A DNA stretch of 64,000 nucleotides, taken from positions 248,001 through 312,000 of the forward strand of contig JAYWIR010000048.1 in assembly GCA_036172245.1 (NCBI GenBank). Direction: 5' to 3'. Below the pieces are notes generated by a model, which was not told the DNA's origin, made no database searches, and worked only from the letters and a program-made list of their open reading frames with translations. Every line of letters begins with the position of its first letter. Within the stretch, counting starts at the first letter, position 1. Source of the DNA: Raillietiella orientalis (taxonomy: Eukaryota). The translations under genes and the position numbers were made by a program. Below, piece by piece: positions 1 to 55,938 of the stretch.

Positions 1-3000
1 GTGAAACAAGGAATAGTATTTGTTATGACCTGAGGTCAAAGTAACAAACTGTCAGAGTCTCAAACTGCTGTGTCTTAATGGCAGGTGTTACTTTGGTGAA
101 ACAGCAACGCAAAACACAACAAAAATTCAAAAACACTCTCGACTTCCGCTTGTCGGAAACCTCTCGACTGGACCCTGATAACAAAGTATCAATCAATTCG
201 TTGGAAACAGATATCGGAGGAGCTAAGCTCTTTTGGCAAGAATTTGCCAGCTACTCAGTATGAGTACTCTCAAGACTAAAAGATCTTTTTTTAAAATTAA
301 ATTTCATCATGTGATTTTTGTCTTTAGCTTTCCAGGAAAACTTCTTCAGATTCTTCAACATTCCTTTATGAGCACTGATTTCTTCCTTCGAAGATGAACC
401 AGCATCTTCAGTAGGAACTTCCGCATTTTCGTTAAAGTCAATCTGTTTGGTTTGTCAATCTGTAAGATGAATCTTCTGCTCACGGTTTGGACTGTCCCCT
501 TACTAAACCAGCATCGCAAGTACCCATGTACCTTCAGTCATTACATTTCTAATCCATATCTGTGAAATAGGCTTGCAATGGGTGCAGGTAATTCATTACA
601 GCTAATTTATCAGGTTTGGCAAGCAGAACCATGTCCGAAGGTTCGATCACCTTGGGAATTCCTGTCGATTCAGTAGCTTCAAACGCCTTTTTACAAGTTC
701 TCTTTTATATCATGAGGATCCAAGTTTGCAAAATCACTAAAGCAAATTCACATGAAATCATGCTGTGAATTATTCAGGCACAACCATGATTTACTGAAGC
801 ATTCGTAATATCAAAAAAATACTCCAACTCATATCGGATATGGTCGAAAGTGATGGAGAATGGCACAAAAAGCCAAAGCCATATTTGTCACTTTAATCCC
901 AGAATATTCGTTTGTTATTTCTTGGCACCAGCTCATCAAATCTTCACTTGATGTGTTACGTTGCTTCTAAACAAATACAACTTTACACAGTTTTCAGATG
1001 AAACAATCATTCGTTATCTATGTACGCTACAAGAAACGCAGCTGCCGACTTCCAGCTTTCAACTTCATTTTAGATGGGCACTGCCTGCGCCCTGGCATAG
1101 GAAAGCAAGCCCTCACTCCAAACAACACCCAGGCATACCACCCTAGAGAGGCCATGAACAAAATGCATGCAGTCTACAACGAAAAGAAAAAGTCACAGCT
1201 ATGCTATCTGTACTGATGCACTTGAAACGCATCAGCAGGTGCTTGCGCTAGATTCAGCAATCAAACACGGAACCACAGAACAACATGGTAAAAACAAAAA
1301 GAAAAAAAAAGGAAGTGCACATGATAAAACAATTCCAGGAACAGAAGCAGTCTTCCTTTAAACATTCGAAAATCCAGCGATTGTGCTGGCAATTGAGCTG
1401 TTTACCCTCTTTTCTTTTCTTTCTTTTCAAATTTAAACACTCATACTCCCAATTTCAAGTAGCTATGAGTATATATAGCTATTGAGCAGGCAATATCAAA
1501 TTCAATAAGAGGAAGCTTCCCATAGTTTCAGCTACTGATAAGGAAACTTAAGCAAGCGCATCTCAACATGTGAGCGATTTAATCCGTGATCTCAAACAAT
1601 CATGCCTTGTCAACAACTGTCTGATGTAAGAAAATCACTTCCTATGTTCGGAAAATGACCAAAAGTATGGTATGAATTCCATGTTGATCCAAAGAGACTC
1701 ATGATTGACATTCACTTTTAAAGTGTAAAATATAACGCCTGATAATGAAACATTCAGAACAACTTTGCACAGTTAAGTACAAAACTGTACTGTTAAGTGC
1801 AGTTTATTACACAAAGTTCAAACCATTCTGTTTAACAAGATGGAATGCAAGTGAGTTTAATGTATACAAGAAACGAAATAAAAACTAAGATACACTCAAA
1901 AGTTGCCTGGCATCGTTTCAATTACATGAATTATCACACAGATAAATGGAAAACCATGTCAACTTTTAAGTCAGAGTTCAGACCAACTTCGGCCAAAAGG
2001 AACAATGAGCTGTGTCAATCAATTTAGGTATGCTAAAGCACATCCAACAAAACTATGCAAGTGAAAATTGGAATAACTTCATCTAAAACGTTATGTGTAA
2101 GCTAGGATGACATCTGAATAGCACCCAACTTGATAAGAGAAGACATGGAGAACGACTTTGGCAACACGGATCTCAGAAGTACACAATGGAAAAAACACCT
2201 ACATCAAGAACCAACTCAAGAATAACATGTACAGTTAGGAATTTACAATTCATTCCTGGAATTAAGATTTCTGCTGTGACTGCACTCTTCACTTTACATG
2301 AAATCACGTGCAAATGGTTCTTCCAAATACAAAATATTGGATCGCAGGAATCAAAAATTTCAAAAACCCAAATCATCCATGTAAAGTTCGCACCTTCTTC
2401 AACTTTGCTCATAACTTCAGGATTCTGCCCATTATTCATTCCGATAGCTGTTTTCCTTTTCATGCTGGCAAGCAAATTCAGGCAATTTCTTTTAAACCTA
2501 AACAAGAGTTTCTCATAAACATGAAAATTTTCCTCCTCCTTCTAAACCTGCTGCATTTTCACCCTAAAACAGCATTTGATGATGCTCCCATTTCCCAGCT
2601 TTTCTTTCAGAATGAAAAGCTGCAAGAAATATCCAAAATTCTAAACAAACGTGATTTCTTTGGTATCACCGATGGGGAACTCTGAAATTGTAGACAGTGT
2701 GCATGACGGATATAAGAAATAGCAAAAACAACCTTTTAAAATCAAGCATCCCACGTATCAACATTCACTGCGACACCAATCTACCAGGAAACAACAGGCA
2801 CAAGGATTGTCACTCATGCACTTAAGGAGCACAAAGCAGAATATGCTGAAGCACTAAGAGAAATAGGCAGTCAACTGATTTGTGGGGAGAAACCGAATGA
2901 ATGAGTCATTGGGGAATAACTAGGAAAATCTCAACTTGACGTTCTTCTCAAATGATAGTTAGAAGCATTGTGCATCAGAAATCAAATTCTCAAATATCAA

Positions 3001-6000
3001 GTGCCAGACTAATTTCACCCTCTATCCTTGCAAGGGCTGCAATTTCGGACAGGATACACACCACTCGCAAATGTTAGAAAAATCCATTATCCTTCTACAG
3101 TTCTGAATACTTATATCATGTTGGAATGAGACCACTGTTCTTGTTATAGCAAATCGATTTGCTTTCCATAAGAGAATGCTAACCTTGGTTTCGGAAACAT
3201 TCTCAGATTGCAAAGAGTCCTTCTGTGTGAGATCGTCATCTTCTTCATGAAACAATAAGCTGAAACACAACACGGTTGCTCTCAGACAAACTTTCACAAT
3301 TGCAACATGCAAACAACAATCCCTACAGCAACACCTTATGTACCAATATATTATGCAAAATATATGGTACATTACACAAAAGATGACCAAGAAACAAAAG
3401 GCATGTACCTGCTTTCTGAGAATTGAAACACACAAACAGAAACTGCTGGAACTTGTTTAACAGCAACATAGGATTACCACATCACATCATCCAATCAACT
3501 TCTCAATCTAGAGACATTAACAAAATGCACACTCTACTAACCTTTCCAGAAAACACAGATGCTGTATGCAACCAAATAAGGAAAATGGAAAATGCAAAGT
3601 AAAGCAGAAGACATGCATTTTCGGAAGATGACCTGCAGTTTATATATGAAACTGATGTAATCAGATACAGAAGTAGATGTGGAAATTGCGTACATTATCA
3701 ATATCATTCTCAAATTCTTGTATTACATAAGAAGGGTTTCAAACAAATTACAACAACAATGAAGAAAACCATGAATAGTCCAAATCATTGTTTGAATTAC
3801 TTACAAGAATCGTTTGAACAAGAAGTGCAAACTTACGCTACATGCTTTGAAGCACCAATCTGACTGAAAAAAACAATTAACACACCTTTCCATTATCTGA
3901 AGCATGTTTGGCATGCCTATCACAAGATGGGTGCCTGCACATGCTATCAAAAACTGAACAGAATACGACAATTACTCAGAACAGTGAATTTGTACGCAGT
4001 AAAACAATGAATCAAACTCCTAACGTTTCAAAGAAATACTGTCCACATGAGTATTGCCATGGGATCCTATTGTCCAAATCATTTGCTACAAAGAGTGAAA
4101 ATACTAATTCCAAGTGATCAGAAAAATCAGGACATACTTACCTTGAAACTGCAAAGGGAATACATTACTTTCATGGACAGAATACAAACACACAGACAAA
4201 AAAAATCTTAAAGAAATATCGTAAAAAAAGATTGTATTTCTTTCTCTGCTCACATCCGTTAAATGGAATACATTAAAAGGAGAAAGATTGGAACAAGAAA
4301 ATTTCCGAGGAGAAGCTAAATGGCCAAACATATGCTTGCATTTCAAACAAACACCAGCAAGGCAACATCACAAATGCCCAATGAATCAATAAAAAATTAC
4401 AAAATTCCATGATTAAACAACTACTTCAGAGTATAAGTACACATCATCCTTTTTCATGAATATTGTTCTCCTACATGTCAATCATGCATTACAGTGTCTT
4501 CATTCCTGGAGCTGCTGATACAAAAGTGAAAGAAAATGGACACATGCAGCTGCAGTACGGTACCTGCATATCTTTGGGAAGCAGATCTGCAACACAACAC
4601 TGACAACATTCGCATTTACTTGTTGCAGAATGAAGAAATGCTCAGAAAAGAAAACAGAATCTCAAATTCACATAAATCATATCTTGGTGCAGAAGGTTAA
4701 TGCTTTTCATCACATTTTACAAAATGCACAAAATGATCACAAATCCACAAGATTACTTGGTGCTGACATTTGTTTAGTTAAAGCAGATAATTCAACAAAA
4801 TTTAATCAAATCTAAAAACTGAGACCAAGTGTTTTTAGATTTGATCTGAATTTTGTCATCATGCACTACATTATTCAAGCCACTTCTTGATGAACACTTG
4901 GAACATATCTATCAACACCAAAAACCTGTCATAAATCTACATGTGCCTGGAGAAAGAATGAAAAACCCTTCTATATGCTTCTATATACCATGCAGCATAC
5001 AATTTGTGTTACTTACAGAGGTAGTGGAAAATGGCATCAGGAATCATGAAAAACATGTGCAATACTTCTTTTCATGTTTCACCCCTATACTGCAAATGCA
5101 AATTCTGTTCCACAAAGAAGGGCAGAAAGCACAACACTTTCACTAGAAAAGCATAGGTGATGGAGGAAATTTCTCATTTTCTTAAAAAGATGAGTTGTTA
5201 ACAAAATCTACTCCACATTTGAAACTTTTGACACAAATCTCATCATACTCTATTTTTAAGAATAACAGATGGCAGCAGACATTTCCACTTGAAGAATTGG
5301 TCATGAAATACAGAACTGAAATCGGAGCATGCAATTTTATGCATGTGATAAACTATGCATAATTTGCCATGCATGACAAGAAAAATACTGTGCTACTGTG
5401 CACACGCACAATGCTTCAAGACTGGTTTGAGATTCAATTGGATATCATGTTGTGCTAAGATCATTGATGCATAAAGCTCCATGTTAAATTTACCCATTTA
5501 CCCATCATGTTCCGAGATTTTCAATTTGTAAGAATCTAAAAAATTAATCCCTTGTTAAACAAATCACTGAAAACATTTGCCATGATCAAAATAAGTTGGA
5601 AACAATATGAAACAATAGAATGTAATCATTCAGATACTTTCTTCTTAAATTACAAACAAGTCCATTCTTGATCTTCAAATTCTTGGTTTCTTGGGTATAG
5701 AAGTAATGTCCCCGTAATTTCCTTGTTTTCAAGAGTGGCCCTCACAATGAAACTTTTATAAGGATTTTTAATGGTGGGCTCCCACTCATGCATGCCAACT
5801 GGATACAATCCTCCTATTCCTTCTTGTCTAAACTACACATTGCTGCTTTGGTGTCCTACAAATAACTTTCCTTAAACAATTCATGCAATCAATCAATTTC
5901 ACTCAACTTTTGTTGCCAATTATTTACACAGTCAAACCCTTCTGATAGGAAAGGAAAAACCACACACGCTTACATGAAGAGGAATTCATATAAAAATTAA

Positions 6001-6170
6001 CAGTTTTAAGCTAACAAGAATGAAACAAGCTACGAATGTATTCTTCACTCGGTCTTCAAATGCATTCATTTAGAAGTACATTCCAAGATGGGTTCATTAT
6101 ATGAGGCGGTGAATGGAAAATTGGCTTCTCTTTGATTTACCTGTTGGAATCTCTTCCAAACTGAACCCAT
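1..6170 (-). pseudogene. EHBP1: Unprocessed pseudogene of EH domain-binding protein 1 (NT-C2 + calponin-homology); 3' part runs off the left edge
   Basis: Colinear minus-strand exon remnants. From ATG 6170: MGSVWKRFQQVNQREANFPFTASYNEPILECTSK* (cf. MASVWKRLQRVGKHASKFQFVASYQELMVECTKKW). 5855-~5650: TPKQQCVV*TRRNRR, frameshift, HEWEPTIKNPYK..ENKEIT..EFEDQEWT. ~5535-5370: FNMELYASMILAQHDIQLNLKPV with stops. 966-833: [35 protein letters not shown]. 736-~532: DFANLDPHDIKEN, frameshift, CKKAFEATESTGIPKVIEPSDMVLLAKPDKLAVMNYL. Lesions: TGA 6066-6068, TAG 5828-5830 at a conserved Trp, donor GTGAGT changed to ATGAGT at 832, extra base near 693. Confidence 0.85.
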
Positions 6171-6923
6171 AATGACTTTCTACATCCCCCATTTTATAAG
6201 TGCCCTTTTCGGAATGCGGAATGAAGGAAGATTTCATTTATGGAAAGATGTGCAAGTGCCTCATCTGTACGCTCCATTATGGAGACCGTTTACCTCTAGT
6301 ACTCTATGTATGCATGTGTAATATAAAGATATGCAAACAATACCAGAGATCAATGACTTACATAGAGTCAAACGCATACGGTGAATTATTTGACATCAAC
6401 GCGTTGAGTGTTCACTTTCTCTGATTAGAAACCCTTTTTACTTTCAGAACCTTGAATATATGCTGCCACATAGGTTGAAGACGAACCAGCTACTCATGAA
6501 CCTGAAAAATGCATTGGGTTGAATGCAAGTCGAGTCGTTCATTTCCTTCTTTGCACAACTCCGTCCCCTCCCTCTACGTTGACCGTGATGAACATTCCAT
6601 TTTAAAAGAACTTTTCAATTTGAGGAAACTCTGGTCTACTCATTCTTTTTTGAAAACGAGGAGAAAAACAGAAAACGGCAAAGGCCGTCGGCTTTTTCAT
6701 CAAGGAAACCACTGCTGGAATAAGTAACCGGCGCAAGCAATGACCGAAAACTAGCAGCAAGGATCGAACTAGGGACGAAGTGAAAATCTACAAGGAAACT
6801 CCATATCTTCGGCGGTCCTTGGGTGAACTCGTAGGAGCGCGACGATTACCATGTCCCACTTCTACCTACGGATAACCGACATCAGTTGCACCTTGGGCGC
6901 GACTTCGTTCCCGATTTTGCAAA

Positions 6924-9709
6924 TAGGGTTGCCAACTGAAGTTGATGGAATCCCGCTGAATGGTCTTCGAAAATCCACGATTTCCCCTAAAAAAATCTCC
7001 AGAGTGTAATATCTAGGATTTTTATTGCTCTTTTTATTTTTATTGTTATTCATAACATGCAATCAGCATTCGATAGGGGAAAAATAATTTTCATATATTA
7101 CTTACTCAAAATATCTGGTTCCTTGGATCATCCTCATGGAAGAAATAGTGCTGCGATTGTGAGGTGCTTGGAGTTTCGGTTCTTCGCTTGTCCACTTTTA
7201 TTCCTATAGGCAGCCAAGGTTCTTTTTTTCATTGATACCTCTGACACAATTGATAATCCTTGCAGCTTTGATAACGCGATCCAGACTTCATTGTGAGAAC
7301 CGCATTAACGAATTCCGATCCTATCCGGTTTCATAGTTCGGACTTCACGATGTTCATCAAGCTGAAGATTGTTTCTACTTGAGCATTAGACCATGGAAGA
7401 ACAATGGAAGATGTCATTAATTCAAGCAACTTTTGAAATGGATTGACATCAGATGCATCTTTATAACTAGCTACTTCTCTCCAGAATTCAATTGTTTTGG
7501 CACTTTTCTCGCACTTTGCACTTCTTAAATTGTTTCACTGGGTTTCTGTTTCTGTTATCTTGTCCGATGGAATTTGGAGATGCTTCATTAGGGGTATCAA
7601 TGGACCTTTGAGAACACGAAGAGCACCGGACACAGAAATTATTGACATTGATCTTAGCACCTTCGTATTATGAGGCACTCTTACTTGAAGCTCTTTATGT
7701 AACTCAAGAAGGAAAATAATGCAGCTTCATCTGAAGTCAGTTTCTTCTTCTCCTGGCAAACTGAGCAAGTGTAGTTTCTCCTTAACTTCATTGTCCAGAT
7801 AGGGAGATCAGTGAACATAGTTTCAAGATTTTCCGTCAGAAAGCTTTTCCTGCAAGATGGAAGCACAAACTTCTTGGCTAAGTCCTCTCCACTAAACAAG
7901 CCAGATTGTCCAGGAGGTTGGTATAATCGGCATTACTTGCCTCAAATGATATGTTTACCCCTTGCGCGTCAGCCAATACTTTTTGGAGGTACAGGAGAAA
8001 TGCATGGTTTTTCATATCAGAAAGCAAAGTGCTGAAAAGGGATGTTGTATAATCTCTCTATTTTGTATTCGCAATTTCAAACATAGCACTGAGTTCTACC
8101 CACTGATCCAGAATTCTGTCTATTGCAGTCTCAATCGACAGCCAATGTGTCTGGTACTTCTGTACAATATTTCTAGGATTGTGTCCATCATGCATGGCAG
8201 CAAATCGAACTTTTTAATCATTTCTTCGTAAGGCAAAATGGTGAAACCAATAATAAATTCCTCTCAGTAAAAAGTCAAGATTAGTGGGAAGGCAAGTTGA
8301 GGCTGCAGAGACAACTAATTGGAGTATGACACATGCAACAGATCATTGTAAGCCCTGGGCATTCACTCCAAAGTTTAGCTCACATGCCACGGTTTATGCC
8401 GTTCTTGATGCTCGCATTATTCATGTCCAATCCCTTTCATGTTTTGAATGTTTAATCCTCTACTATCAAATGTTTCCTTTACAGTCCCAGCAATAGATTT
8501 CTCATCACAGGTTTCAGCCGCTGCCAGAAAAGTATTATACATGATGGCTGATTGACTACACAGCAATATACAACAGCAATTCTTAGCGTTGTGCTTTCAC
8601 CACTATCGTTGGATTCATCAATTGAAATACTAAAAGGACCATTCCCTACAGCCTTTTCGAAGTGAGGTGCCAATACGAAGCTTGTTATAGCTGTACACCT
8701 TAGAACGATGTAATTGGATCTTGCAATTGAAGTTTCCGAGAGTTTCTGTTTACACAGTTCTCCGAGTTCGTCTACTGTCCACATTGCTGCGTGACATGCT
8801 TAAAGACTCTTCAGCTGCGTCTTCGGAGTCTGTTCGTTGAAACAAAAGTGTCCAGTTTTCGGGAAGAAGAATGGAGCTCTGGCTTCGTTTAGCAGTGAGA
8901 AATTTGCCCACACGATGTTTTGCAGCCAATACGCATTTGCAAAATCTGCATTCAGCTTTATCAGCTCTTCCCAGAATTTCCAAGATCCAATCTCTGAGCA
9001 GCACATCACCAGGCCACTCTTTCTGAAACAGTTGCTGATATTTTTGAGGGCCCATATCTTCAATGAAACAACGAACAAGAGTAATACCATAGACACCCAA
9101 TAATCTAACGTAACACGAGGTATTGAAGCCCACAATACCATAGCACACGGCCAACATACATAGTGTCATTTAATCTTCATATTCAGTAGTACAAAAGTAA
9201 AATGCAAACTAGCAGTTAATTGTTGATGACGTGAAATGAGTAAGCCACCGCTGTACGTGTTCGGTGCATTTAGAAAGAGAACACTACACTGCCGGCCTTA
9301 GTAGCTATGGTTCAAGGAAAACGTTAGAACAGTCTGTAAATTGTAGTGAAATGCTCGAGCGAATTGCCGTTGCACTACAAGAATCACAATTAAAACGTGA
9401 AAGTGTGTTAATAATAGGGAATTGGTTTTCCTCAACAATCTTTGTCACCGTTGCGATAATTTATCAATGTCACTCTACCTCCGTCAGGACTGAAACGGGT
9501 GGATAAAATATCCGGAATTCTATTTCAGACTATTGACAACTTCCGAAATTGAAAAATTTCTTTGCAGTCATGAAGAAACCGTGAACTTTGGCGGTCGGTG
9601 ATTTAAAAACTTCTAGATTCCCCCTCAGCGGAACCTAATATTTTTAGCTGCCAGTTGAGTTTCCAAAAACGCTAGGCCTAGAGGGAAAAACGCTAAATTG
9701 GCAACCCTT
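6924..9709 (-). mobile_element. Decayed hAT-superfamily DNA transposon with TIRs and 8-bp target-site duplication
   Basis: Left end TAGGGTTGCCAA (6924-6935) and right end TTGGCAACCCTT (9698-9709) are inverted repeats (11/12). Flanks TTTGCAAA (6916-6923) and GTTGCAAA (9710-9717) match 7/8, the 8-bp TSD length typical of hAT. A broken transposase lies inside on the minus strand. Confidence 0.85.
7230..9055 (-). pseudogene. Disrupted hAT transposase (N-terminal zinc finger, catalytic DES motif, hATC dimerisation region)
   Basis: MGPQKYQQLFQKEW..DWI..DKAECRFCKCVL from 9055; RCTAITSFVLAPHF..GNGPFSISIDESND in ORF 8479-8784; LPWSNAQVETIFSLMNIVKSEL*NRIG near 7300-7400 (cf. hATC LPxSNAxVERxFSxMNxVKTKLRNR). 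Split by stops and frameshifts; 3' boundary approximate. Confidence 0.8.
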
Positions 9710-10113
9710 GTTGCAAACATTGCCAAGTTGATCTCGATGCATCTTTCCAACCTGCGAACAAATCAACGTGTTTTCGGAACAAAGCACTTTTTTTTTTTTT
9801 CCTAATTTTACAGATTCCTGCAGTGGTTTTTCCAGCACGGCAACCGTGGTCCTTTTCTCCCGAGTTCGCCTCCAGAAGAGAGCTGAGAAGGAAATCTGAA
9901 GTGTGCAGAACGTTTGCGCCAACCCCAAGGCGCCCACGCTTAGCCATGCACGGACCAACAAACTGGGAAGAACGGGAGCGTCTCCTTGCTTTCGCAGCAG
10001 AAAAGGTCACCGGCAAACCGACTGATTTGCATGCAAAGTCGCTGGTAATCGCGGCAGCGGAAACGGAAGACATCGGAAAGACAAACGGTACTCCGTCTTA
10101 CAACTGCCATCGA

Positions 10114-12468: not shown

Positions 12469-15400
12469 AAATCATGGAGGAACCACGCTGATGTCTGCTT
12501 CCTTTGATCCATTCGCGGCCAGCAACGACGGTTGGAGTGGTTACTCCACAGGCACCCTGGTTTATTCAGAACTTGGCTAATTGCATCGAAGATGAAAGAG
12601 GGGGGACAAGCAGCTAAAAGGGGAAAGCATCCTCCATCTTCTTGGCCTCTCTATTCTTTTCTTTTCATGCTATGATTTCAAAGGTCCTTTCACTGAGGGT
12701 AACCTATCCTGGAAATTCCTCATAAGGCTAAAAACGAGTACATTACAATGCCCAGCAGAGTTTTACAAATTGCCGGGAGACAACTTCCAAGTCTTTGGAG
12801 TTTCCTCAGGCAGCTGTCTCCGAGTGGAGCGTGATGTTGTACAGCAAGGATGGCAGATAGATCATGGTGACCCATGGGCTTAAAGTAGTATAGATCATGG
12901 TGACCTATCTGATGGTTCCAGTTGGTCACTAGGGAGTTGTAAATGTATCCATTTCCCTCCTCAGGTGACGGACCCACCCCCATGAGGTTTTCAGGACCTT
13001 ACATGAACTTTAGGACGCCTTCACCTCAGACTTCTATTTGCGTGTTTTTCAGTCTGATTCTTTAAATTCTCCACCTGGATATGGATGCGACAGTTGATGT
13101 TTCAAACAAGCTCACTTGAAGATTCCTCGTCGAGTACCAGCATGGGTGCAGAATGCACGCTAGAGCGCGAAACCCTTCAGCGATCCGACATGTAGCAGTT
13201 GGCAGCAGCTGCACATGGACTTGAATCTCTTTTCTGTCTCTGATGAGAAGCTCTTGGTGAGGCATACCAGAAGGTAACGGGTTAAGGGTGAATCAGATGA
13301 CCTAGTTCTCGGTAGATAGCGACATGAAAATAGTGCTTCTCTATGAAATAGTTGATTGTGCAGGGAGAGATCCTTACCTATACGACTTTTGCATCCAACA
13401 TATTTTTTTTTACGTCTCTTGCTTGTTTATTGCTTGCTGATTGTCAGCGAGAGGAGTGTTCCTCACGAGCAGGTCAAACTAGTCATATCAGCAACCTCTT
13501 CTTGATGGATTCAAAATTAGGGGCTCAGCAGCGAGATTCTTTTCCAAAACGCTGCCATCAAGCTGTTGCAATTCCCGCAGTGCTGGGCTGAGGTCCAGGA
13601 ACAAATACGGTTCTATTTACAGAGAGTCAAATGAATTCCACGCTTCTTCCCATTTACCAGCTTCTTTCAAACGCTGATGCTTTCGATACTGAGCTCTCGT
13701 CACCACACTACACCTTGCTTAAATCTCCTTTGCATAACGCAAGCACATGACGTGCATTTTCGTTGCGGAGGAGTACCTTAATAGTGCCAATCTCCTCAGT
13801 CTAATTGCATACCCGGTACCAGGAACTTGTTTTATTTTGTTCAGCAGAACATGAGATTACGAGAAGTTTATCCGTATATCGGAAACCCCATTCGTACCGT
13901 GCCTTTTGAAAAAAAGGCTTCAAAAGAGAAGGAAGAAACAAAGAAGAAGAAGCGAGGATCAGAAATGAGAAATCCACCGTGAATTGCGTTGTAAAGGAAT
14001 GTGTCGTGGAAACATTACTTTACTCTTTTTAGTCTCAATTTCTTTCGTTGGTCTCTTGGTGTAAGAAAATATGAGAATCCCATCCAAACACAATTGAAGA
14101 TTGGCCTGCTGTTTTTCCCAGTTGTTTTTTGAACCCCGCTGATCGAAGCGTCATGAAGATGCAGCATTGCATACAGTTTACACATTTCGTAAGAATCATG
14201 GATTTTTGACCGGAAGTGACTTGCAAATGAGAAACTTATGAGGAAATAAATCTCTGGGGATGCGATCAAGCGTTGTTTCCGATTTTCGCAGATTAGATGC
14301 GTGGAAGGACTGCAAAGAAGGAAAAAAAAAAAAAAAAAAAAAAAGCGTTTCCGAGATGCACTGCTGCTTGAGTTTATAGCGGATCGACCTATTGTCAAAT
14401 GGTACACATTTTGCGATTCGAATATCGTAAAAAAGATACTGCTGTGGAAAATGTGCATTCCCCACAGGATCGCTTTCCGTGGACTTCCGTTGGAAGTGGG
14501 GATCGAGTTTCATGCTGCCTGCCTACAGCGCATTGCAGCGTGCGCGGAATTGGAGGCCCTGCGTCTGCGGGATGTTGCTTGGCGTTCTTTTATGTGATCT
14601 TGCAAAAAATATTTTCCCGATTGTGCACACATCATGTTTTTTGTGAAGCATCTTCTTCGTTCCGTAGGCCTCCGAAATGGACTTAAAGTAGTATGAATGC
14701 TCGAAACGTCTTCCGTTTGTCAAGCTCAACGAGAAAACAGGAAATGGCGCGGATGCTTTCAGCGTTTCGTGTTTTACCCCGCAGTCTGGCTACGGTGCGG
14801 CATTTTGAATTTCATCGCAGGCAGTTTCCTGGAATCCTTCAAGGGCTGCGTCGTATGTGGGAGATGCCGGCCGCAGTTTTCGTCGAAAACGGCAACCGAT
14901 TTGGTAAGGGAATGGCGTACACAGTAGAGTGACCTTCACAATGGGAGCATCTCACTACGCAGACGTATATGGGTGAAACAGCAACCGTGCGTAGTATTAG
15001 TATGTGATGGCAGTCTTCAGATTAATCAAAAATCAGTTTCCATAGCACAGAGCCCTTCAATGTCTATGAAGCAAAATCGCCAGGGTAAAAATGATCAGAA
15101 CGTTTGGTGATGAACTCAAGCTTGTAAGAAGAAAAAGTGGTTGTCTTGCAGTAATGAACTTCCAGAGTCGGAATCCCTAAATCTTGTTATGCAAGCAGCC
15201 CTATGAATCACTCACCGAGGTATACAAATGGAATAACCTGATCCTGGTATGAGGGGCTGCTTGAAATAGGTGCATGAGGTGATTGGAATTTCAGAAGTAA
15301 GCAAAGGGAAACTGGCATGAAGTGCAGGGAATCCCTCAGCAGTACCCAGCTCATTAAGGAATACATGAAAAATAGGAAAAAAGGAACTTTGTTGCCTCGG

Positions 15401-16199
15401 TCAATTTCCTGGGATCAGTGACATGGGTTTAGTGACACAGGCAATGTTCTAGTATTGAAAAGATTCAGATGGTACATGAGGATCCAAGATGAAATGTACT
15501 CTGCTACATGAAGGGATAAAGCTGTGGTGCATGCAGCAGGAAGAAAATCGCAATCTGTGTGATACTTTCTATCACAAATCCACTTTACGAGATGAGGCAA
15601 GAGTAATTGTTTCTAACGAATCTGAATTGAGCTAAGGTTTATTCTCCACAAGAGGCCAAATTTCTTCAGAGGATGCACTAATGAGAAGATAATGTGAGGC
15701 ATTTTAGAGATAGGGATGTTGACAGATGCTCATCCTGCAAATGAATTCCAATAGAAAGCAATTTCTTGAGAATGATTGCACATAAGCTTAAGTGCTTGTA
15801 GAGAAAGATGAGATTCAGTGGAAAATAATAGCAATAATAATAATAACAATAAGCATACAGTGAAGGCCTCTCTTAAGTGGAGCGTTTGAGACTGCCTCTA
15901 GGTGAACGTTGTGTAGGGTTTGCACCCACCCTTGATGCCTACCCACATAGTTCTTTTGTATGTGCGTTCACTGCCCATTTTAATTGGAGCATGAACAAGG
16001 ATGCGCGAGATGTGCACTCACACTTGTGGTGTGTTGCGATGCAAACCTTTCCACGGATGCCCATGCTTTATCCCCTCACCCAAAGTAACATCGGTCGACG
16101 CCAGGTTGCCAGTATTAAATCCCAAGGGCGATTCACAAAAGTTTCGCAATTCGTGTGAGAAGCTGAAGAAGAAGGAAAAAAAAAAATGAGCGCAATGGA

Positions 16200-17120
16200 A
16201 TTTGATCGCTTGCAAGTCTTGATCTGACTTCTCGTATTTTTGCGATCCTATAAGAACCTACGAATGAGGTAGCAGTATCCAGAGAAGGAAATCTCCTGGC
16301 CGAAGCGTACAACCGATGCAGTTTGCAACAACCAGGGATGCATCCACAGTAGCGCCGATTTTTTTTTTTTTTTTATTCTTTTTTGGCACCAGATGCTGAC
16401 ATCTCGTTAAAGTGACGCTTGCACCTTTCGCAGGAATACCGACGGACCACTTTGTCCCTTGGGTGGACAACTTTGTCCTACGTCACATCACACGATATGC
16501 GCGAACGATTTTTTCTGCAAAAGCAGTTTTGATGCGATTCATACAGGGCTTCAACGCACTTACACTACAGGGCTTCGACCACGAATCATTGAAAAGTAGA
16601 CAAGAAAGCTCTTTGGAAGGCCTGTACTGGATAAAGTCCCTAACGCTCGCCGAGCTCACTCATCAGAACTCATCAGGAAAGATGCAGCGCTCGCGGCTCG
16701 TGTTCTCGAAAGACGCTGTGAGCCGACTCCGAGTACCCAAACCTTCGACCGGCCATCCCAGTAGGACCTCCAGCTCCTGAAATGCATGTCCGCAAACCTT
16801 TCCCGAAGAAACAGCGGGAGTGTGCAAGTCGTAGGGGCGGATGAGAGCTCGAATTTTCCTCATCCGTCCAGCTGCGGAGACGGAGCAACACAAAGTGCAT
16901 TGATCCAACAAACGGCAAAAGGTTAGGAGACTGATCGAACAAGCGGAATGTTCGTGTTGGTCAGTGTCGTCGCAAAGCACACTGCAAGGCAGGAACCGTG
17001 AGTGCCACCGGGTCAGAAGGTCGGCTGAACGCAATGCGACCGCAGATCGCCGACCATCTCCGGAAGAAGAAAAAGCCCTTGAAACTGCTTCCTTCTTCTT
17101 CACCTCGATGCGTCCGCAGG
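16200..17120 (-). pseudogene. Possible degenerate gene head-to-head with KATNAL2, tentatively CFAP300 (C11orf70)-like
   Basis: Fragments in order on minus strand: KGFFFFR~GGYYFR, LLTRW/MRKIRA~LRQWSMLGRIKA, IRPY../CFFGK~FQSY..AFFKD, SKELSCLLFNDS~SDELRRVLLVEDS (following tandem TGA TGA at 16660-16665), DFLLWIL..KYE~EFLFCLF..QYE. Needs several frameshifts; weak by-eye match, boundaries approximate. Confidence 0.25.
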
Positions 17121-17219
17121 TAACTGTGCCCGAAGTATAGCACTTTGGAAGAAGTCCGTACCATCCGTTTGCAAATTTGGGTGGTAATTGGATTTGGGGA
17201 TTCGAAATATCTCCGTCGG

Positions 17220-17263
17220 ATCACCATGGAAAGCAGTAAATATGCTGGAATGGCTATGGAAAC
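17220..17263. promoter_or_regulatory. Two imperfect RFX X-box-like motifs at the KATNAL2 start
   Basis: ATCACCATGGAAAG (17220-17233) and ATGGCTATGGAAAC (17250-17263), each one mismatch from RYYNYY-AT-RRNRAC. X-boxes are the established promoter element of ciliary genes. Confidence 0.3.
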
Positions 17264-18904
17264 AGTAAGTTCTCGACCAAGGTGTAACTTTTTTTTTTCT
17301 TCCTTTTTTTTTTTTTTTTCTTTTTTTTTTTTTACAGTTTTTGAACTTTATGATTATTTCAGAGGACTCGACATGTCCGGGAACAACGTAAAGATCTGTT
17401 AGTGCTAATATACTGTTTCTTTCAAACCGAAGGGTAGGACTTGGTATGAAATTTCGAGTTTTGCTATGGGGAGTGTTTTAGATTTTTGGAATGCGCGCAG
17501 CAGTTGATCGTTGATAGCAAAATCCCCCTCAATCTGTACGAAGCATGCGACAACATTGATCTGCCCACTATCTTTCTCGAGTACGATCGCTATCACACCG
17601 CATTCTTTCAACGGCACCTCCGTTACTCGCGTTTGTCGAAAACGTGCCTTTGCACCAGCGAGCCCAAATCCACGAGACCGTCGAAAAAGCTCCTGGTTCC
17701 CAAATCCACGAACCCAAGCACTCCGCCCTCCACCTTGAGCATGAAGATAGAAGGCCAGTCGTGTGCTGCGGAAAAGCAAAATGGAACTTGCGATGCCGAC
17801 CACCGCTCCAGTGCAACAGCCACTTCGGAGGATGAGTGGAAAGCGCCAAGCAACGTACTGAGTAGGTGGAGAGATCTCGCTTTAACGCTGCTACAGGTGA
17901 ATCCACGATTCTGCCACCGCTTGTTAGCATCTTCTTGACTTTTAGGAGACCGTAACCCTACACGATCGAGTCGACTGGGAAGATCTGATAGGCCTCGATG
18001 AGCCCAAGACCGTCCTCCTAGAATCATTAGTATATCCCCAAAAATATCCCGAACTTTTCAAAGGAATTTTCAAACCAAGCAGAAATGTGCTCCTCTTTGG
18101 TCCACCTGGCACAGGGAAAACTCTGTTGGCTAGAGCAGTTGCTTCTCAGTGCTCGACGACCTTTTTCAACATTTCCGCCAGTTCCTTGGTTAGCAAGTGG
18201 AAAGGGGAATCGGAGAAATCGGTTCGACTCCTATTTGAGTTGGCACGTTCACGCGCTCCATCCGTAATTTTTATCGATGAAATTGACAGCCTAATAAACC
18301 ACAGAGATAGCAGCGTTGAGCAGGAAGGAACGAGGCGCCTAAAAACGGAAATGTTGATCCAGTTAGATGGATTGGTTCAAAATTCCTCCCAAGTGTTGTT
18401 ACTTTGTACCACAAACATGCCATGGTATGTGTCATTCGGAATCGCTCATTTCTGTGCTCGTAGGGAATTAGACATTTCGTTCACTCGAAGGATGGAAGAA
18501 CGCATTTACGTCGGTTTGCCGGATGCCAAGTCCAGATCTTTGTTATTCCAGAAATTTCTCCCTAGAAACTTGGGCTCCGATGAAGCAAAGTTCGAAGTTT
18601 GTGTTGATTACGAAGAGTGTGCGCTGCACAGCGAAGGATTCTCCGGCAGCGATATACAAACGATTTGCAGGAAAGTTGCAAAGATGCACCTCCGAAACGT
18701 GTTGAGGCGTTACGAAGGTATTTATGACCTCAGACAGTCATCCCGTCACGTCACACAGGTGCTCCTGGAGGGAAAAGAGACAGTTTGTTTCACGAGACCA
18801 TCCTCACCTCTGACTTGCTAGATCTGTTGTCCAAGTTAGAGCCGCTGTCGGAACCTTTGAGATCGAAGTATTCGCTATGGAAACAGCGAATTCATCTGGG
18901 CTGA
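17226..18904 (+). CDS. KATNAL2: Katanin p60 subunit A-like 2, LisH + AAA microtubule-severing ATPase, 6 exons, 467 aa
   Basis: Exons 17226-17264, 17363-17433, 17482-17896, 17946-18424, 18464-18717, 18759-18904; all GT-AG, phases compatible, 1404 nt. KATNAL2-type N-terminus RKDLLVLIYCFFQTEG..YEACDNIDLPTIFLEY; Walker A GPPGTGKT, pore loop SKWKGESEK, Walker B IFIDEID, second region of homology TNMPWELD..RR. Confidence 0.92.
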
Positions 18905-18957
18905 ACGGCTCACGTTGCCGCCCCTCTTCCTACGGTAGGTATCGAATTGTGCTCCCC

Positions 18958-21900
18958 TCAGCTGGAGGGGTAAAGGACGAAGATGCTCAGGGAAGTTTCA
19001 TTGCGTGTGCAAAGCGAAAGAGATTCCTTCACACTCACATCTGACGAAGAGTCGAAATTCCAGTGGTGACGCTTCTCGTGGTGTCCTGCAATGATGCTCG
19101 CACAAACGAGGAATTGCGATTCGATGTTTGCGATATTCGGCAGGAATTTGCAAAAATAAAACGAGAGATTCGTTAGTCCTGCTAATGGAAAAAAAAGTCT
19201 TTCCAAACAAATCCGTTCTCGAATCGAATTCTCTCCGGATCTCAAGGAACGAAACGACATCCTCCCTTGGCTATTGGTTTCCTCGCAGGCTTTTCAGTTT
19301 CTCGGTCCATACGCCTACTCTGCAGTTGGCAAGCGCGTTCCATCGATTTCTGGAGCAGACTTTCCTAAAGAGGTCTTGTTAGACCGACCGGGTCGCGATC
19401 CGAGTTGTCCATGGATACGTGGAACCGTTTCGCAGGCAGACTTTGCTGATTTTCACTTTGATTTCTCCCGTGGGACTTTGGGAGCGAAAATCCATCTTTT
19501 CCTCCCTCCGAATTCGAGATGCGAGCTTCCTTTCTTGTGCGCATCTCCCGATGGTGCAAAATCCGTGGTACAGCAATGAGATGCACCAAGTGCCTGAATC
19601 GCTCGTTGCTATGCTGCGTTCAGGGACCACGCAGCGCGAAGACACGCACCAAGAGATTCTATTCATCTGTGAATGCTGATCACGGAGTGCCGATCTATCT
19701 TTCCTCACCCTGATTCTTCTCCTCAGTTTTCCGTTGCTACCTGGTCCTAACCGTCCGAGTCCTTTTTTCAAACATGGACTCCGTTGGGGACGAAAATCCG
19801 AATTCCGTCCAAGCGAATGCTCCCTTTCTTCATTTCCTTCTTCCTCCAATCACGTGAACCTGACTGAGAACCTGATTGCCTTCCATCGACCTGTGCCCTG
19901 ATGTGGATCCATTGATTCTCCAACATTCTTCAGACCACCATCTTTCCCCGTGCAGTTCATTTTCTGCTTCCTTTCACCGCGTGCGGATTCCATCTCTCGT
20001 TGTTCATACTGTACGGCACTCGTCCTGTACGCTTTCCTCAAATAGACAGTCGACGGTCTTTCTTGGTAACGACATCCACTTGTTTCCTTTTGCATGTCTC
20101 CAGCTTTTCGCTGCACCACCATGCAGCAGAATCTTAGTTAACGAACAAGCAGTGCAGTCACAACAGCAAAAATAACCGCAAAAACAACACTTACGCTTCG
20201 TCTTCCCAATAATCTGCAGCTTGCCCGTCTGATTAAATTTATTCCTGTCAACAAGCTGGAAGTGCATAGATGTGCAGCAAGCCGTGTTTTTTATTTCTTC
20301 TCTCTCGCGTCACGTGGTTCTCACAGGACACAGTCTCCCCAGCATGCTCGCGTCTCCCATTCGGCTCTTACACTCACGTGCATTTCTCCCAGCGGAGCTT
20401 CCGAAAGAGAACATCTCTTCAAGATGAGGAATTCAGTCCTCGACGAATCTCTGGTCTCTGAATTCATTGTCCGGTCGCTCTTGAGGAAACATCCGTTGTC
20501 GGTACTCTTTCGTAATCTCAACAACCCTCAAGTGGATCTCGTAATCTCTGGACGGATCCCGACTTCTAGTCGCAAGGCGTTTCTCCCAACTGTGAGCTCT
20601 GAAGGAAACGAATGCTTCCCGGTCCGTCCCCTCCATCGCAGGAAGGCTTCCTAGAGAGCGTCTCCGCACCTCACCTCCGTATCTCCCGGGGAAGGGTGCG
20701 CAGCGTTCAGGCATCTCCAAGAGACAGCATTAGTTTGAATACGAATGAAACCAACACAGGACCACCGAACTGGCCCAGGTCTTGTTGTCTCGGACACAGT
20801 CAGTGTCGCTCTGAAACTTCACGTCCGCTGCTCCAATTTCAAACGTGCGCTCAGTCCATTGCCAGTCGTGGGAATTCGAGCTCAAGGTGTTTCGGAAAAA
20901 AGCAAATGAGACGCACGAAGAGCGGAGCATTGCCTTCCAGTTTTGGAAGGTGTTGCCTCCGCACTGGCCCACAGCCAGCCAGGGTCCAAGTTTTCAGCGA
21001 AGGTGCGAAGGCCAACACAGCAACGGTGTTGCTCCTGCTCGGAATCCTTGTGTTGCGACAGGCAAACAGGAATCGGCGAAGTCCCCATGAAGGGCAACTC
21101 TCTTCTCCAGAATTGGAGAATCGTGTCGAGTGGAATGTGGAAAGAGACTGCTGCAATCCAGCATCCGGCACCCATGTCGGACAGCATGTCGCCCAACTGG
21201 CCATGGACGCCAGATAAACACACAGTTCCCTTCGCAGCGGTAAGTTTTTTGCCGTGTGCGTTGACGGATAGGAGGCATACCCCGCAGATCCATCGACGCT
21301 TCAGCAGCTCAGGGCTGCGTTTGGTTACAAATAGGGAAATTTCCCATTCGTTGCTGAATGTCTCGATGACAGAAAATGAAGCCTTGAAAATGTGCTTTTG
21401 GAAGCAGAGCAATGGAGCGAACAGTTGGGGGATTTTACTTGGCCAAGTATGTGGCAGCGACTGTTCATTCTGTTTTCTTATGAGGAATTTGTTGTGTGAT
21501 TGAGTTCTCCGTAAACCGAAATTATCTCACGAAGGATGCGGAAACACATTCATCGAAGAGTGCTTCCCTGAAAAGAATTCCTTGCACTGCATCTTCGAAG
21601 CACCTGTGCCATGCTATCCTTTGGGATCTCGACGGCACCAAAGTGCACTCTCGGTCTCGTTTCACGAAATCACAAGCAGCTGTTTCTTTCTACTGATGAT
21701 TTTTGAAATGCGCTGCTGCTTCTATTTCTACCGTTCTCTCAGGCGTCCTCGTAGGGGGTGGCAGAGGTTTTAGAAAATACGAAAGAGTGGAAAATACCAA
21801 CTCTGTCTTCTTTGATGTTCAACATCGAAAGAGAAAAGAGGTTTTCTAATTTTTGCCAAGCAATTTCGCTCTCGTTACTTCTTGGAAAACCTCTGATTGC

Positions 21901-24744
21901 CTCCGTAAATTCAGCAAGCGCTTTTTCTTGGCTTTTTTGTTCATTCGGCATATTTATTTACTGTTGTCTTTCCGGTTCCACAATTCTTTTCAGCACCCTT
22001 TCTTTCTGTTTTCCGTTAGCTTTTTCATTCTTCGCCACGACGTCAAACACTGAATCTGAAAACCTTCTATTTTCGAATTCAGTGTCTCCCCTCCGCTTCC
22101 TGTTCTTCAGGACTGCACCAATTTGAGCAGTTCGTCAGTGGAGTCCATCCCAGAGATGGTGTTTGCCTTGCCCCCTCTTTAAAAGCGGAGGATCTTCATT
22201 CCTCCCTTTGCGAAAGCGCTGGAAACCATAGAAGGGTTATGGCCGATGGTGTGTCTTTCGATGATCATGAAAAGTTATTGAGATACAGAAAACCGCACGG
22301 TTCGGGAGACGCGCTTGCAATTTCGCGTCATCTTCCGGTAGATCATTTGGCATGGTGCATTTTTCTACTTCCCTCTTCCGCATGTTCTCTTTTTCCCTTT
22401 GGATAGGCTTTGATTGCAGCAGCCTCTGATGCGGTTCCATTTGTATGTCCATCGCTCACTTTGCCGTGTATTCTGCACATGTACATTCCTTTACCGTGTC
22501 AGTAGCACCCTTGCCAACAGGAGGAACCTTCCAGATCTCGGTTCGTGTTTGCCTCTTTTTTTCCAAAGGAAAGAAATTGGCAAAGTGCTGCAAATCCCTC
22601 TGTGCAATGCTTACTTCGTTCCTCACCAGGGACAGCAGCTTTGTAAACGAAGAAAACAACAAATTAGGAACGGAGGAAACTCGTCGAGAAGATTTGTCAG
22701 TCGTGTCCGTGCATCTTCTCCAATGGATTCTTTTCCTTCTTACTTCCTATAAGACTTCCTGCTGTTTCAGGAGGGATGTATGAAATTATACTTCTGCGTC
22801 GGATGCGCACAAGAGGGGAAAACGGACAGCTTTCGATGCCCTCAGCCAAGTGGCAAGTTCCCCGCCACAGCGAGAAGGATGGTGATTTCCGGATGCAACT
22901 CCACAGTTCGTCCCGTGATCAAAGTTTCTTCTGTACGCCCCAAGCAGCGACGCAGCCCACGCCCATTTCCCCTCTGTGGAGCTCCTAGAAGAGTTTTCCT
23001 TTGTCTTTTTCAATCCCGAAGATGCAGGCCAGGCGCCATTACTGAAGACTGTATTTTTGAATGGATTCGGAATTCCCTTTTCTGACGTAGAAATTGCCGA
23101 AAAGAGTCGTTTCCTTCTCTGATTTATATGAACTTCCGGGCAGCATGGAAAAATCGCTGCTTTGATGTATTCGGAATTTTCAGGTCTAAATCTTCCCTTT
23201 TAATGCTCAGGGCAGGGACAGGGACGAATATTCCCAGTGACAACAAGCATAAAAGCTGCTGGCAAGCCCATTTCTGTCTGCTTTGCCTTCACATGAAACT
23301 TCGGTGCTGTACCAACGAGCACCGCAGTATGGCTGTGTCCCTGCTTAACCATTTTCAACGGACGTGCGTGTGCTGCTGACATCCGTGCCTTCGACGCATT
23401 TCGTGCCACCTACGTCTCGAGATTTGTGTCCGGGTGGGGGCTGAAAATAGTTGAGAACCCTGATCGCTTCTAACGGGTTCAGTTTGTGTTCTTGCGCCGT
23501 GTTTTCCTAGAGGATGTGAAAGTTTCTGCGTTTTCCCGGAGTTGCCAGTTTGAAGCACCAATTGCTCTCATCTTCGAATTCCCGGAGATGGCTGCTTCGA
23601 ACATCCGTGTTCGTAGTGTGCTGTGGTGCATGAAGTTGATCGTGGCGCACCCTTCAAGCTCGATGGAACGAAGAGTAGTCGCAAGTCCTTCATCTTTGTT
23701 TCCTCCATTTTTTATTTTGTTTCGTTTTTGTGTTCTTTGAAAATTCTTCCGAGACCGAAATCACTTGGGTGGCGTCGTGTGTCAATGCATGTCAGACAAC
23801 CAGTCGACGTGGTTTCGCCACCTGCCTGGTTGTACCTTGCCCTTCTGGCGCGGCTCCGTCAACCCTCCAATGTTCCATTTCCCCTCGATTCTGTGGAGGG
23901 TGCATCCCCTACGGCCGTCAACGCCGGTCAAAGCAACCAACAAGGACGCGAATTCCCTACGAATGGCCCAATTTTCGCCCTTTGAGTAGAATGTCTCGTG
24001 CCTCTCCTTGCGATGTTTGTGTGCGTGGGTCCCTTCTGATTTTCCCGATCAGAATTCGGGCGGATGACAGTTCCAACTGTCCGTCGGGCAGAGTTTCTGC
24101 ATCCACGAATTCATCGCAGATTTCGGCGGAGACGATAAGAGTTCCGATTTTAGGAAACTCACAGACGTAGCTCAAACTCTGCTTGATAGTATAGTATTTT
24201 TCTCCTGCATTTGGAAATGATTATTCATTAGTTTTCTCATTTTTAGGTGATATCGTGTTTTTTCTTTTTAGGATCCTCTACGGGTAGTTCTGATAGTGGA
24301 AACAAAATGATACACTTTCAGACAATTTCTTATGTTTTGATCGTGTTTGTCTCTATCATTTCGGAATTTTCATGCTATAATAAATGTAATCAGCGACTTT
24401 TGATTGGTGATTTAAGGAGAGCTCCAGGGGACAACGGATTCTCTATCGAAATCAAAGGATATCCGGCCAAATACAATCCTAAAGAAACATATTCAAGTGA
24501 GTACCAAGTACCATTTATTTTTTCAGTCTGCTAAGATGAGATAAACTTGCGAATTAACAACCACTATGCCATGCAAGCGAGACCCCGATAAAGTTGTGTA
24601 ACCTTCAGGTGTAACTTTCTGGAGATACTATCAGGATGCAGAGACCTCTGCATCCTGATAGTATCTCCTCCCTTCTTTAGACGCTCTGTCAGAATAGTTT
24701 CTATCTACCTCACGTTTGAGAAGAGCTGATGCCGCTGTGCCCAT
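18958..24744 (-). pseudogene. Large degenerate multi-exon gene, tentatively C2CD3 (centriolar C2-domain protein)-like
   Basis: Long exon-like frames with splice signals, broken by single stops at 22456-22458, 21958-21960, 21522-21524 and 20433-20435. Exon 24204-23961 YTIKQ..ETLPDGQLEL..KGRKLGH resembles the C2CD3 N-terminal C2 (YAIRC..DGLPIGRVQI..SKKLGE). About 21700-21000 gives RVHFGAVEIPKDS..NSFQG, SFVR*FRF, FQKHIFKASFSVIE..VTKRSP and VSFHIPLDTILQ..ELPF..PV, colinear with the next C2CD3 C2 domain as remembered. A decayed gene is more certain than its identity; both ends approximate. Confidence 0.45.
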
Positions 24745-51699: not shown

Positions 51700-52200
51700 A
51701 GGCGCAGCCCCGAGACAGGTGTTAGATCCACTCGTTGGGTTCATCAGTCAGACAAAGTAGTTCCATGAAGCCCTGCAAGAATAACAGCATGCTCCACAAT
51801 GAGCGGCTCTCTCTGAATTCGGTATGACCAGGGTAAGTAACAAAGTATGGCCAGGGTAAAATGCCACGGTGAAGAACTCCTCGCTGATTTTGAACCATTT
51901 GCTTTAGAACGCAAATGTTCGCATTGGCCGAAGGCAGATTTCCGTGCACTGGAGGAGATACAGCTGAACACAAGAACCTCCGTGGAGATTGTGTTCGAGT
52001 CTTAGACCAGAAGTGTCATACAGTGCTCCATCCTTTAAATGTTCAGTAAGGAATCATGTTTTCATAGCTCTCAAGATCCATAACCTCCAAGGATCGATTA
52101 TCGAGTCCAGTCGTCGTGTAGAGAACCACATACCAATCAGTGGATCAAGAAGCAATCTTCTTAATCACATGTGAGTTCCCTGCTTAGAAAGAAGGGACCA
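51700..52200 (-). mobile_element. Possible very old LINE (post-RT region) remnant
   Basis: WILRAMKT*..LRLEH followed by CSAVSPP loosely recalls the WILRTF..PRLEYCSxVWSP stretch of CR1/Jockey-type LINEs; heavily degenerate. Confidence 0.25.
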
Positions 52201-55901: not shown

Positions 55902-55938
55902 TTATCAATCAGTACCTGAATGGCAAATTTAAGCTTTC

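Follow-up and report, generated by a model that had tools for sequence, protein, structure and literature searches.

The window is a stretch of 64,000 nucleotides of eukaryotic DNA, whose KATNAL2 clusters with insects in a tree; its first 24.7 kb are considered here (Table 1). The minus strand carries, between 6170 and the left window edge, the 5′ two-thirds of an apparently dead EHBP1 gene. A decayed hAT transposase copy sits ~1.1 kb upstream of it, and an apparently intact KATNAL2 follows further to the right. We consider it probable, as an account of the whole region, that the segment holds one dead host gene, one dead transposon and otherwise intergenic DNA, and is thus an ordinary, insect-like piece of genome and no gene graveyard.

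Table 1. Features placed in the first 24.7 kb of the window, with strand and supporting evidence.
Feature	Position	Strand	Evidence or detail
EHBP1, non-processed pseudogene (supported), 5′ two-thirds (NT-C2 + CH)	1..6170	-	tblastn with eight insect EHBP1s; frameshift-aware alignments to three references each; Pfam CH
EHBP1 exon 1	6067..6170	-	starts with ATG at 6170; 34 codons plus TG, the first two bases of a split Trp codon
EHBP1 exon 2 (NT-C2)	5653..5855	-	TAG at 5830-5828; frameshift between 5801 and 5784
CH-domain exon a	833..966	-	18-nt in-frame deletion near 880
Former intron inside CH domain, 96 nt (putative)	737..832	-	5′ ATGAGT, 3′ CTTTAG; intron status inferred from sequence
CH-domain exon b	561..736	-	extra base at 696
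hAT-superfamily (DUF4371-type) transposase fossil, intronless, decayed	7247..9043	-	HMMER homologues; P0178 alignment
No gene or remnant detected	9044..17362	.	Pfam, ORF-length and Rfam/tRNA screens, of limited power
KATNAL2, apparently intact (part of LisH, linker, AAA ATPase with Walker A/B, C-terminal helix)	17363..18904	+	Pfam AAA, E=2.9e-35; named homologues; tblastn
No gene or remnant detected	18905..24744	.	Pfam, ORF-length, read-through and Atlas screens, of limited power

In tblastn searches, eight full-length insect EHBP1 proteins matched the minus strand colinearly at 6170-5396 and 966-561. Residues 1-34 aligned to 6170-6069 and residues ~37-101 to 5855-5653, followed by a weak piece at 5488-5396 and the CH domain at 966-561. 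The best two-piece match for the CH domain reached E=1e-27 to 6e-28, and the best protein matches of the CH exon were insect EHBP1s with 69-77% identity. The NT-C2 region was also present. Identity over residues 1-34 was 62-65% in six of the eight references, 56% in one and 50% over 24 residues in another, and residues 58-101 likewise aligned to this region. Pfam found no NT-C2 in the EHBP1 fragments, either as single ORFs or by read-through. Its two CH matches (ORF 552-704, E=1.5e-4; ORF 832-966, E=8.4e-3) were both under the gathering score. EHBP1/dEHBP1 (PMC7442826; PMC3255984) is an adaptor for Rab8/10 and EHD proteins that combines NT-C2, CH and bMERB domains with a CaaX box. The window copy shares the colinear NT-C2 and CH domains, its C-terminal CH exon being 71-80% identical, but differs in its destroyed reading frame and deleted CH core motif. 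The C-terminal half of the gene, with the bMERB domain and CaaX box, would fall past the left edge (position 1) of the window.

Introns were retained in the relic, with exon ends placed by eye, without transcripts. Approximately 210 nt separate exons 1 and 2, and the G finishing the split Trp codon stands at 5855, right after the acceptor TTTGTAG. The join reads SKW-TPKQQCVV, colinear with SKWKPTKLSVVW of the references. Within the CH domain, removal of the 96-nt piece that ends in CTTTAG yields FRPYPIDFANLDPHDIKEN, colinear with FRPDLIDFDSLSPHD(I/V)K of the references.

Multiple lesions interrupt this gene structure. The TAG in exon 2 replaces a tryptophan conserved in all eight references, and the frameshift of the same exon lies near 5797. 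The CH core TTSW(R/K)NG, a segment present in all eight references, was removed by the 18-nt (6-residue) deletion. The putative CH intron begins with ATGAGT in place of GT, a donor change of GT to AT at +1. A surplus base at 696 puts ...DIKEN and CKKAFEA... in different frames, at the same place with each of three references. The exon 2 frameshift, the 6-residue deletion, the ATGAGT and the base at 696 each recurred with all three references and are visible in the sequence. Exon 1 ends in AAA TG followed by AATGCA, the expected GT donor being absent. A possible GT to AT donor change was also seen at 560-559; of all the lesions, this one and the missing exon 1 donor are the least sure. The frameshift-aware aligner has no splice model, and its calls at 5658-5657 and the TAA at 5647-5645 were left uncounted as lesions. 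Both could be no more than the exon 2 boundary, with a GTAATT donor at 5653.

Retained introns together with these lesions support a non-processed (intron-bearing) EHBP1 pseudogene, in keeping with the broken, intron-keeping gene proposed in the initial annotation. Function would have been lost through the nonsense mutation, the frameshifts, the CH-domain deletion and the loss of splice donors. Non-processed animal pseudogenes combine the same elements, namely homology to a conserved multi-exon gene, retained introns, a premature stop, frameshifts, an in-frame deletion and a mutated donor. Nothing in kind sets the present relic apart from them; it is special only in the identity of the gene and in the question of a live copy.

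Base composition changes along the window. An AT-rich, CpG-poor block spans 1-8 kb, with the EHBP1 relic and the transposon inside or next to it, and the live genes occupy GC-richer DNA. GC content was 0.34-0.40 in 1-8 kb, rising to 0.42-0.50 over 8-26 kb and 0.53-0.62 over 26-48 kb, and CpG observed/expected was 0.48-0.53 in 1-8 kb versus 0.74-1.10 across most other parts. The plus strand of 1-6 kb was asymmetric, with a GC skew of -0.105 to -0.135 and an AT skew of +0.087 to +0.164. The only tandem repeat found was a poly-T tract at 17289-17333.

No part of the window is richer in AT than the one that carries the lesions, and EHBP1 could in principle be alive and its lesions consensus or assembly errors. 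We regard this as highly improbable. Base substitutions account for at least two of the lesions (TAG for TGG, AT for GT), another is the 18-nt deletion, and neither frameshift lies within a long homopolymer. Some 11 kb away, ~1.3 kb of KATNAL2 coding sequence is free of lesions. The KATNAL2 frame stays open across three GT..AG introns (17434-17481 and 17897-17944, 48 nt each; 18424-18462, 39 nt), from near reference residue 14 as far as its stop codon; its first coding exon with the ATG was not located. The Pfam-matched exons of other genes were similarly clean: the F-spondin domains, the mtSSB exon, and the ETS and SAM_PNT domains of a yan-like ETS gene all stood in open frames, as seen by Pfam only, unspliced. 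The substitutions, the 18-nt deletion and the undamaged KATNAL2 thus make assembly error unlikely, as the initial annotation had argued, and we infer that the EHBP1 lesions are real mutations and that no functional protein is made. That annotation named EHBP1, KATNAL2, F-spondin, mtSSB and yan correctly throughout. Its statement that the last four splice cleanly was borne out for KATNAL2 from about residue 14; for the other three it extends to the open frames matched by Pfam.

Over 193 aligned residues, the EHBP1 relic was 56% identical to the references, which were 73% identical among themselves. The corresponding values for KATNAL2 (235 columns) were 53% and 70%, the same ratio. EHBP1 therefore shows little extra protein divergence beyond that of the intact gene, which suggests that its death was fairly recent.

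We lean towards the relic being a decaying duplicate. The sole reason for this lean is that Drosophila flies homozygous for dEHBP1 loss die (PMC3255984). Given a real pseudogene, the alternative is a unitary loss, in which the lineage gave up its only EHBP1 locus or at least the NT-C2/CH part of it. A second EHBP1-like sequence was absent from the window, to which the search was confined. Likewise, only poly-T/poly-A matches appeared when 1-25 kb was compared with the whole window, indicating no internal duplication and hence no paralogous block within it. The strand asymmetry of 1-6 kb and the CpG depletion would fit a locus long transcribed and methylated, but a duplicate would carry the same composition. 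The lineage is also fast-evolving, with a KATNAL2 end branch of 6.38 versus a median of 0.38. Set against the Drosophila lethality, these points leave a unitary loss rather unlikely.

Were this the sole locus, decay would have been fairly recent and partly by G-to-A change (TGG to TAG; GT to AT in one donor or two). That a fast-evolving insect dispensed with this endocytic-recycling adaptor, or cut it to its C-terminal half, we judge distinctly unlikely. The best match to the window KATNAL2 in protein collections was only 51% identical, so that their lack of a near EHBP1 paralogue is uninformative. The relic, which we still take more readily for a duplicate, would matter more only if the genome had no intact EHBP1 elsewhere.

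The hAT fossil was recognized through its homologues. With ORF 8482-8799 as query, an exhaustive HMMER search returned 28 matches and a word-indexed one none. DUF4371 was found in 11 of 17 homologues scanned (mostly single-stretch matches among the 28), three of which also carried Dimer_Tnp_hAT. Residues 7-631 of P0178 (679 aa) aligned in four pieces in different frames (E=7e-82). Pfam gave no direct match on the window's own hAT ORFs, and their DUF4371 and dimerisation regions are known via the homologues. The near full-length, colinear P0178 match and the lack of introns agree with hAT transposases, which carry DUF4371 and a C-terminal dimerisation domain. The window copy differs in its 10 in-frame stops and at least three frameshifts. 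A search for terminal inverted repeats gave only short, imperfect pairs of 17-22 nt in inconsistent order, none of them convincing. The fossil does not derive from a host gene.

Three further spliced remnants, tentatively DNAAF3, CFAP300 and C2CD3, had been proposed beside EHBP1. Pfam screening of 1-24.9 kb covered every stop-to-stop ORF of ≥45 aa (316; E≤0.05, one ORF only to 1e-4) and every ORF of 27-44 aa (280; E≤0.01). None of these 596 ORFs matched a DNAAF3, CFAP300 or C2-domain family, and the only meaningful matches were to the CH domain (two ORFs) and AAA families (one ORF). In neither 9.3-17.3 kb nor 18.9-24.75 kb did long ORFs exceed the number in composition-matched shuffles (P 0.16-1.0). 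The two longest unexplained ORFs were not protein-like in Atlas (recognition 1021 and 2075, both below 2300) and had no usable match; scans for Rfam families and tRNAs found none. Six-frame read-through of 11.0-17.45 kb and 18.9-24.75 kb against Pfam was empty and of low power. Such scans carry little weight because read-through of 1-6302 lost even the known CH matches. A codon-position chi-square scan was powerless in this genome, leaving the KATNAL2 exon itself undetected. As a lead only, regular-expression searches of 1-25 kb with a few short motifs gave no DNAAF3 match and five scattered single CFAP300 matches without a cluster.

Eroded or finely split intron-containing remnants of one or more of these three genes nevertheless retain some grounds. 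All five other gene names given alongside them proved correct, and in a genome whose introns measure 48 nt a gene-free 14 kb is a long stretch. The Pfam screens also overlooked known decayed sequence: on single ORFs they missed two of the four clearest EHBP1 pieces (exon 1 and the WEPT... piece, both NT-C2) and the whole hAT fossil. Against this stand the 596 ORFs free of the expected families, the chance-level ORF lengths, the sparse motif matches and the finding that the one extra protein-like region is a transposon. On balance, we consider such remnants unlikely. The remaining 14 kb held no detectable gene remnants; 9044-17362 is probably intergenic and perhaps holds the first KATNAL2 exon.

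The suggestion of up to four intron-containing dead genes is thereby reduced to EHBP1. The proposed DNAAF3, CFAP300 and C2CD3 remnants found no support, and an intronless transposase fossil stands as the sole additional protein-like region. The initial annotation had also expected such remnants to escape ORF-based annotation, and this holds for the EHBP1 relic: it would go unseen by an ORF-based pipeline and might come out of a homology-based one as a gene in fragments.

Weak Pfam matches to the CH domain were found in two short minus-strand frames, 552-704 and 832-966. A homologue search with the first frame returned 38 proteins, of which the full-length ones were insect EHBP1 (69-77% identical). 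Alignment of eight insect EHBP1 proteins by tblastn gave a colinear placement on the minus strand (see table), and the C-terminal half would be expected past the window's left edge. The NT-C2 and CH exons lie 4.4 kb apart, separated by AT-rich DNA (966-5396), in contrast to the introns of under 50 nt in the neighbouring gene.

Coordinates of features in the window
Feature	Position	Strand	Evidence or detail
EHBP1 CH domain	966-561	minus	tblastn
EHBP1 reference residues about 120-149 (weak)	5488-5396	minus	tblastn
EHBP1 reference residues 58-101	5784-5653	minus	tblastn
EHBP1 reference residues 37-53	5851-5801	minus	tblastn
EHBP1 reference residues 1-34	6170-6069	minus	tblastn
KATNAL2 intron	17434-17481	plus	48 nt, GT..AG
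KATNAL2 intron	17897-17944	plus	48 nt, GT..AG
AAA ATPase exon (KATNAL2)	17946-18818	plus	Pfam E=2.9e-35
KATNAL2 intron	18424-18462	plus	39 nt, GT..AG
KATNAL2 further intron	starts near 18717	plus	
F-spondin: Reeler, Spond_N, TSP1 and Kunitz domains	31.9-45.4 kb	plus	Pfam on open frames
SSB exon	55686-55898	plus	Pfam E=9.4e-14
ETS + SAM_PNT	56165-57304	minus	Pfam on open frames

Lesions were assigned by sequence reading, conservation in the references and frameshift-aware alignment (three references per region). EHBP1 exon 1 ends in ...TCT AAA TG and is followed by AATGCA instead of the expected GT donor; the G completing the split Trp codon lies at 5855, right after the acceptor TTTGTAG. A TAG stands at 5830-5828, where all eight references have Trp, and a frameshift is located between 5801 and 5784. 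The CH core lacks the 18 bases of TTSW(R/K)NG, kept in 8/8 references, and its frame is shifted by one extra base at 696. Within the CH region, a 96-nt piece (832-737) begins with ATGAGT (expected GTGAGT) and ends with CTTTAG; its excision restores perfect colinearity with the references (FRPYPIDFANLDPHDIKEN). A possible GT to AT donor change at 560-559 and aligner calls near 5658-5645 are uncertain and were not counted. Colinearity in tblastn, lesions and retained introns bear out the initial annotation's reading of EHBP1 as a dead spliced remnant. Because its introns are retained, the copy is, judged by sequence, a non-processed pseudogene.

The alternative that these lesions are sequence errors is opposed by their nature, which includes substitutions and the 18-nt deletion, and by the position of the frameshifts, neither within a long homopolymer. 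KATNAL2, 11 kb off (17363-18904, plus strand), moreover has a clean frame that runs from roughly reference residue 14 through its stop codon, with canonical GT..AG introns. Random assembly error is thus unlikely for EHBP1, as was originally argued. The pseudogene shares 56% identity with the references, against 73% among the references themselves (193 aligned residues). The intact KATNAL2 AAA region gives the same ratio (53% against 70%, 235 columns), so the low EHBP1 identity can be put down to the lineage. Little extra protein divergence has accumulated in dead EHBP1, which, on these small samples, suggests a fairly recent death. No close EHBP1 paralogue occurs in the protein collections, which is uninformative, as the species' own KATNAL2 is missing there too. 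A Drosophila study (PMC3255984) describes dEHBP1 mutants as homozygous lethal, and for this reason we lean towards a decaying duplicate over the sole copy.

Several protein-like minus-strand frames at 7.3-9.2 kb were seen by eye; they had no match in Pfam or in a word-indexed homologue search. When the 106-aa frame 8482-8799 served as query in an exhaustive HMMER search, 28 proteins matched (E<=1e-3). The Pfam scan took in 20 of these, leaving out eight multi-stretch matches (P0162, P0172, P0174, P0176, P0180-P0183). The top three were bacterial FG-GAP or cadherin repeat proteins; they match a short acidic motif and were rejected as spurious. DUF4371 was present in 11 of the other 17, just two over the curated cut-off; three also carried a hAT dimerisation domain, and six had no domain. 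By tblastn, 16 of the 17 match 7247-9055. The alignment of P0178, a 679-aa HMMER match, spans its residues 7-631 (E=7e-82); it is broken into four pieces that lie in different frames, and it contains 10 in-frame stops. No clear terminal repeats were found around the fossil. On these matches, the second dead coding sequence is an intronless hAT transposase fossil on the minus strand and not a spliced host gene.

Homologues of the AAA exon carry the name KATNAL2, the closest just 51% identical. In a 23-row tree the window sequence groups with the eight insect sequences in a well-supported set, its end branch measuring 6.38 versus a median of 0.38. The DNA therefore probably comes from an insect or a close relative absent from the protein collections. 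The Walker A/B and arginine-finger region looks normal by eye despite the long branch. KATNAL2 had been listed as intact; this holds for its frame and introns, but the first coding exon was not found. A 45-nt poly-T/pyrimidine tract (17289-17333) lies immediately 5' of the first recognisable exon, and comparable tracts are present near 57.1, 60.9 and 63.3 kb.

Three further spliced remnants had been proposed, under the tentative names DNAAF3, CFAP300 and C2CD3. Pfam searches of 316 stop-to-stop frames of >=45 aa and 280 of 27-44 aa, starting in 1-24.8 kb, gave only scattered weak unrelated families beyond CH and AAA. Across 9.3-17.3 kb and 18.9-24.75 kb, long frames were no commoner than in shuffles preserving local trinucleotide content, and the two longest unexplained frames had no Atlas match and low recognition scores. 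Rfam and tRNA scans were empty, no internal duplication was found within the window, and a regex of a few DNAAF3/CFAP300 motifs, usable as a lead only, gave no cluster. These screens are weak: of the four clearest EHBP1 pieces, the single-frame Pfam screen failed to pick up two, it overlooked the whole transposase, and the codon-position test was blind to KATNAL2 itself. Six-frame read-through gave nothing for 11.0-17.45 kb or for 18.9-24.75 kb, at low power, and this means little because read-through of 1-6302 missed even the CH domain. The three remnants are unsupported, and we consider it improbable that the region holds at least one further real remnant. Instead of a graveyard of four dead genes, it is unremarkable DNA that contains a single host pseudogene and a single dead transposon. 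A 273-aa open frame (24708-25526, minus) crosses the end of the studied region, with no Pfam or Atlas match (low Atlas recognition, 1021); it is probably not a gene, because such long frames are at chance level in the shuffles.

Apart from the three remnants, the five gene names in the initial annotation were correct. GC varies blockwise from 0.34 to 0.62 along the window. Two blocks, 1-8000 and 52001-56000, are AT-rich and CpG-depleted (GC 0.34-0.40; CpG observed/expected 0.48-0.59, and 0.48-0.53 in the first), amid GC-rich DNA (up to 0.62) with a ratio of about 0.9-1.1. The first contains dead EHBP1, with the transposon at its edge and just past it; the second adjoins mtSSB. Germline methylation of broadly expressed genes could account for both, as could a regional bias in mutation. 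The F-spondin exons (31941-45375) are scattered across 13 kb of 53-62% GC, where chance long open frames abound on both strands, and a Kunitz/BPTI domain (43354-43986, E=2.2e-19) lies amid the TSP1 repeats.
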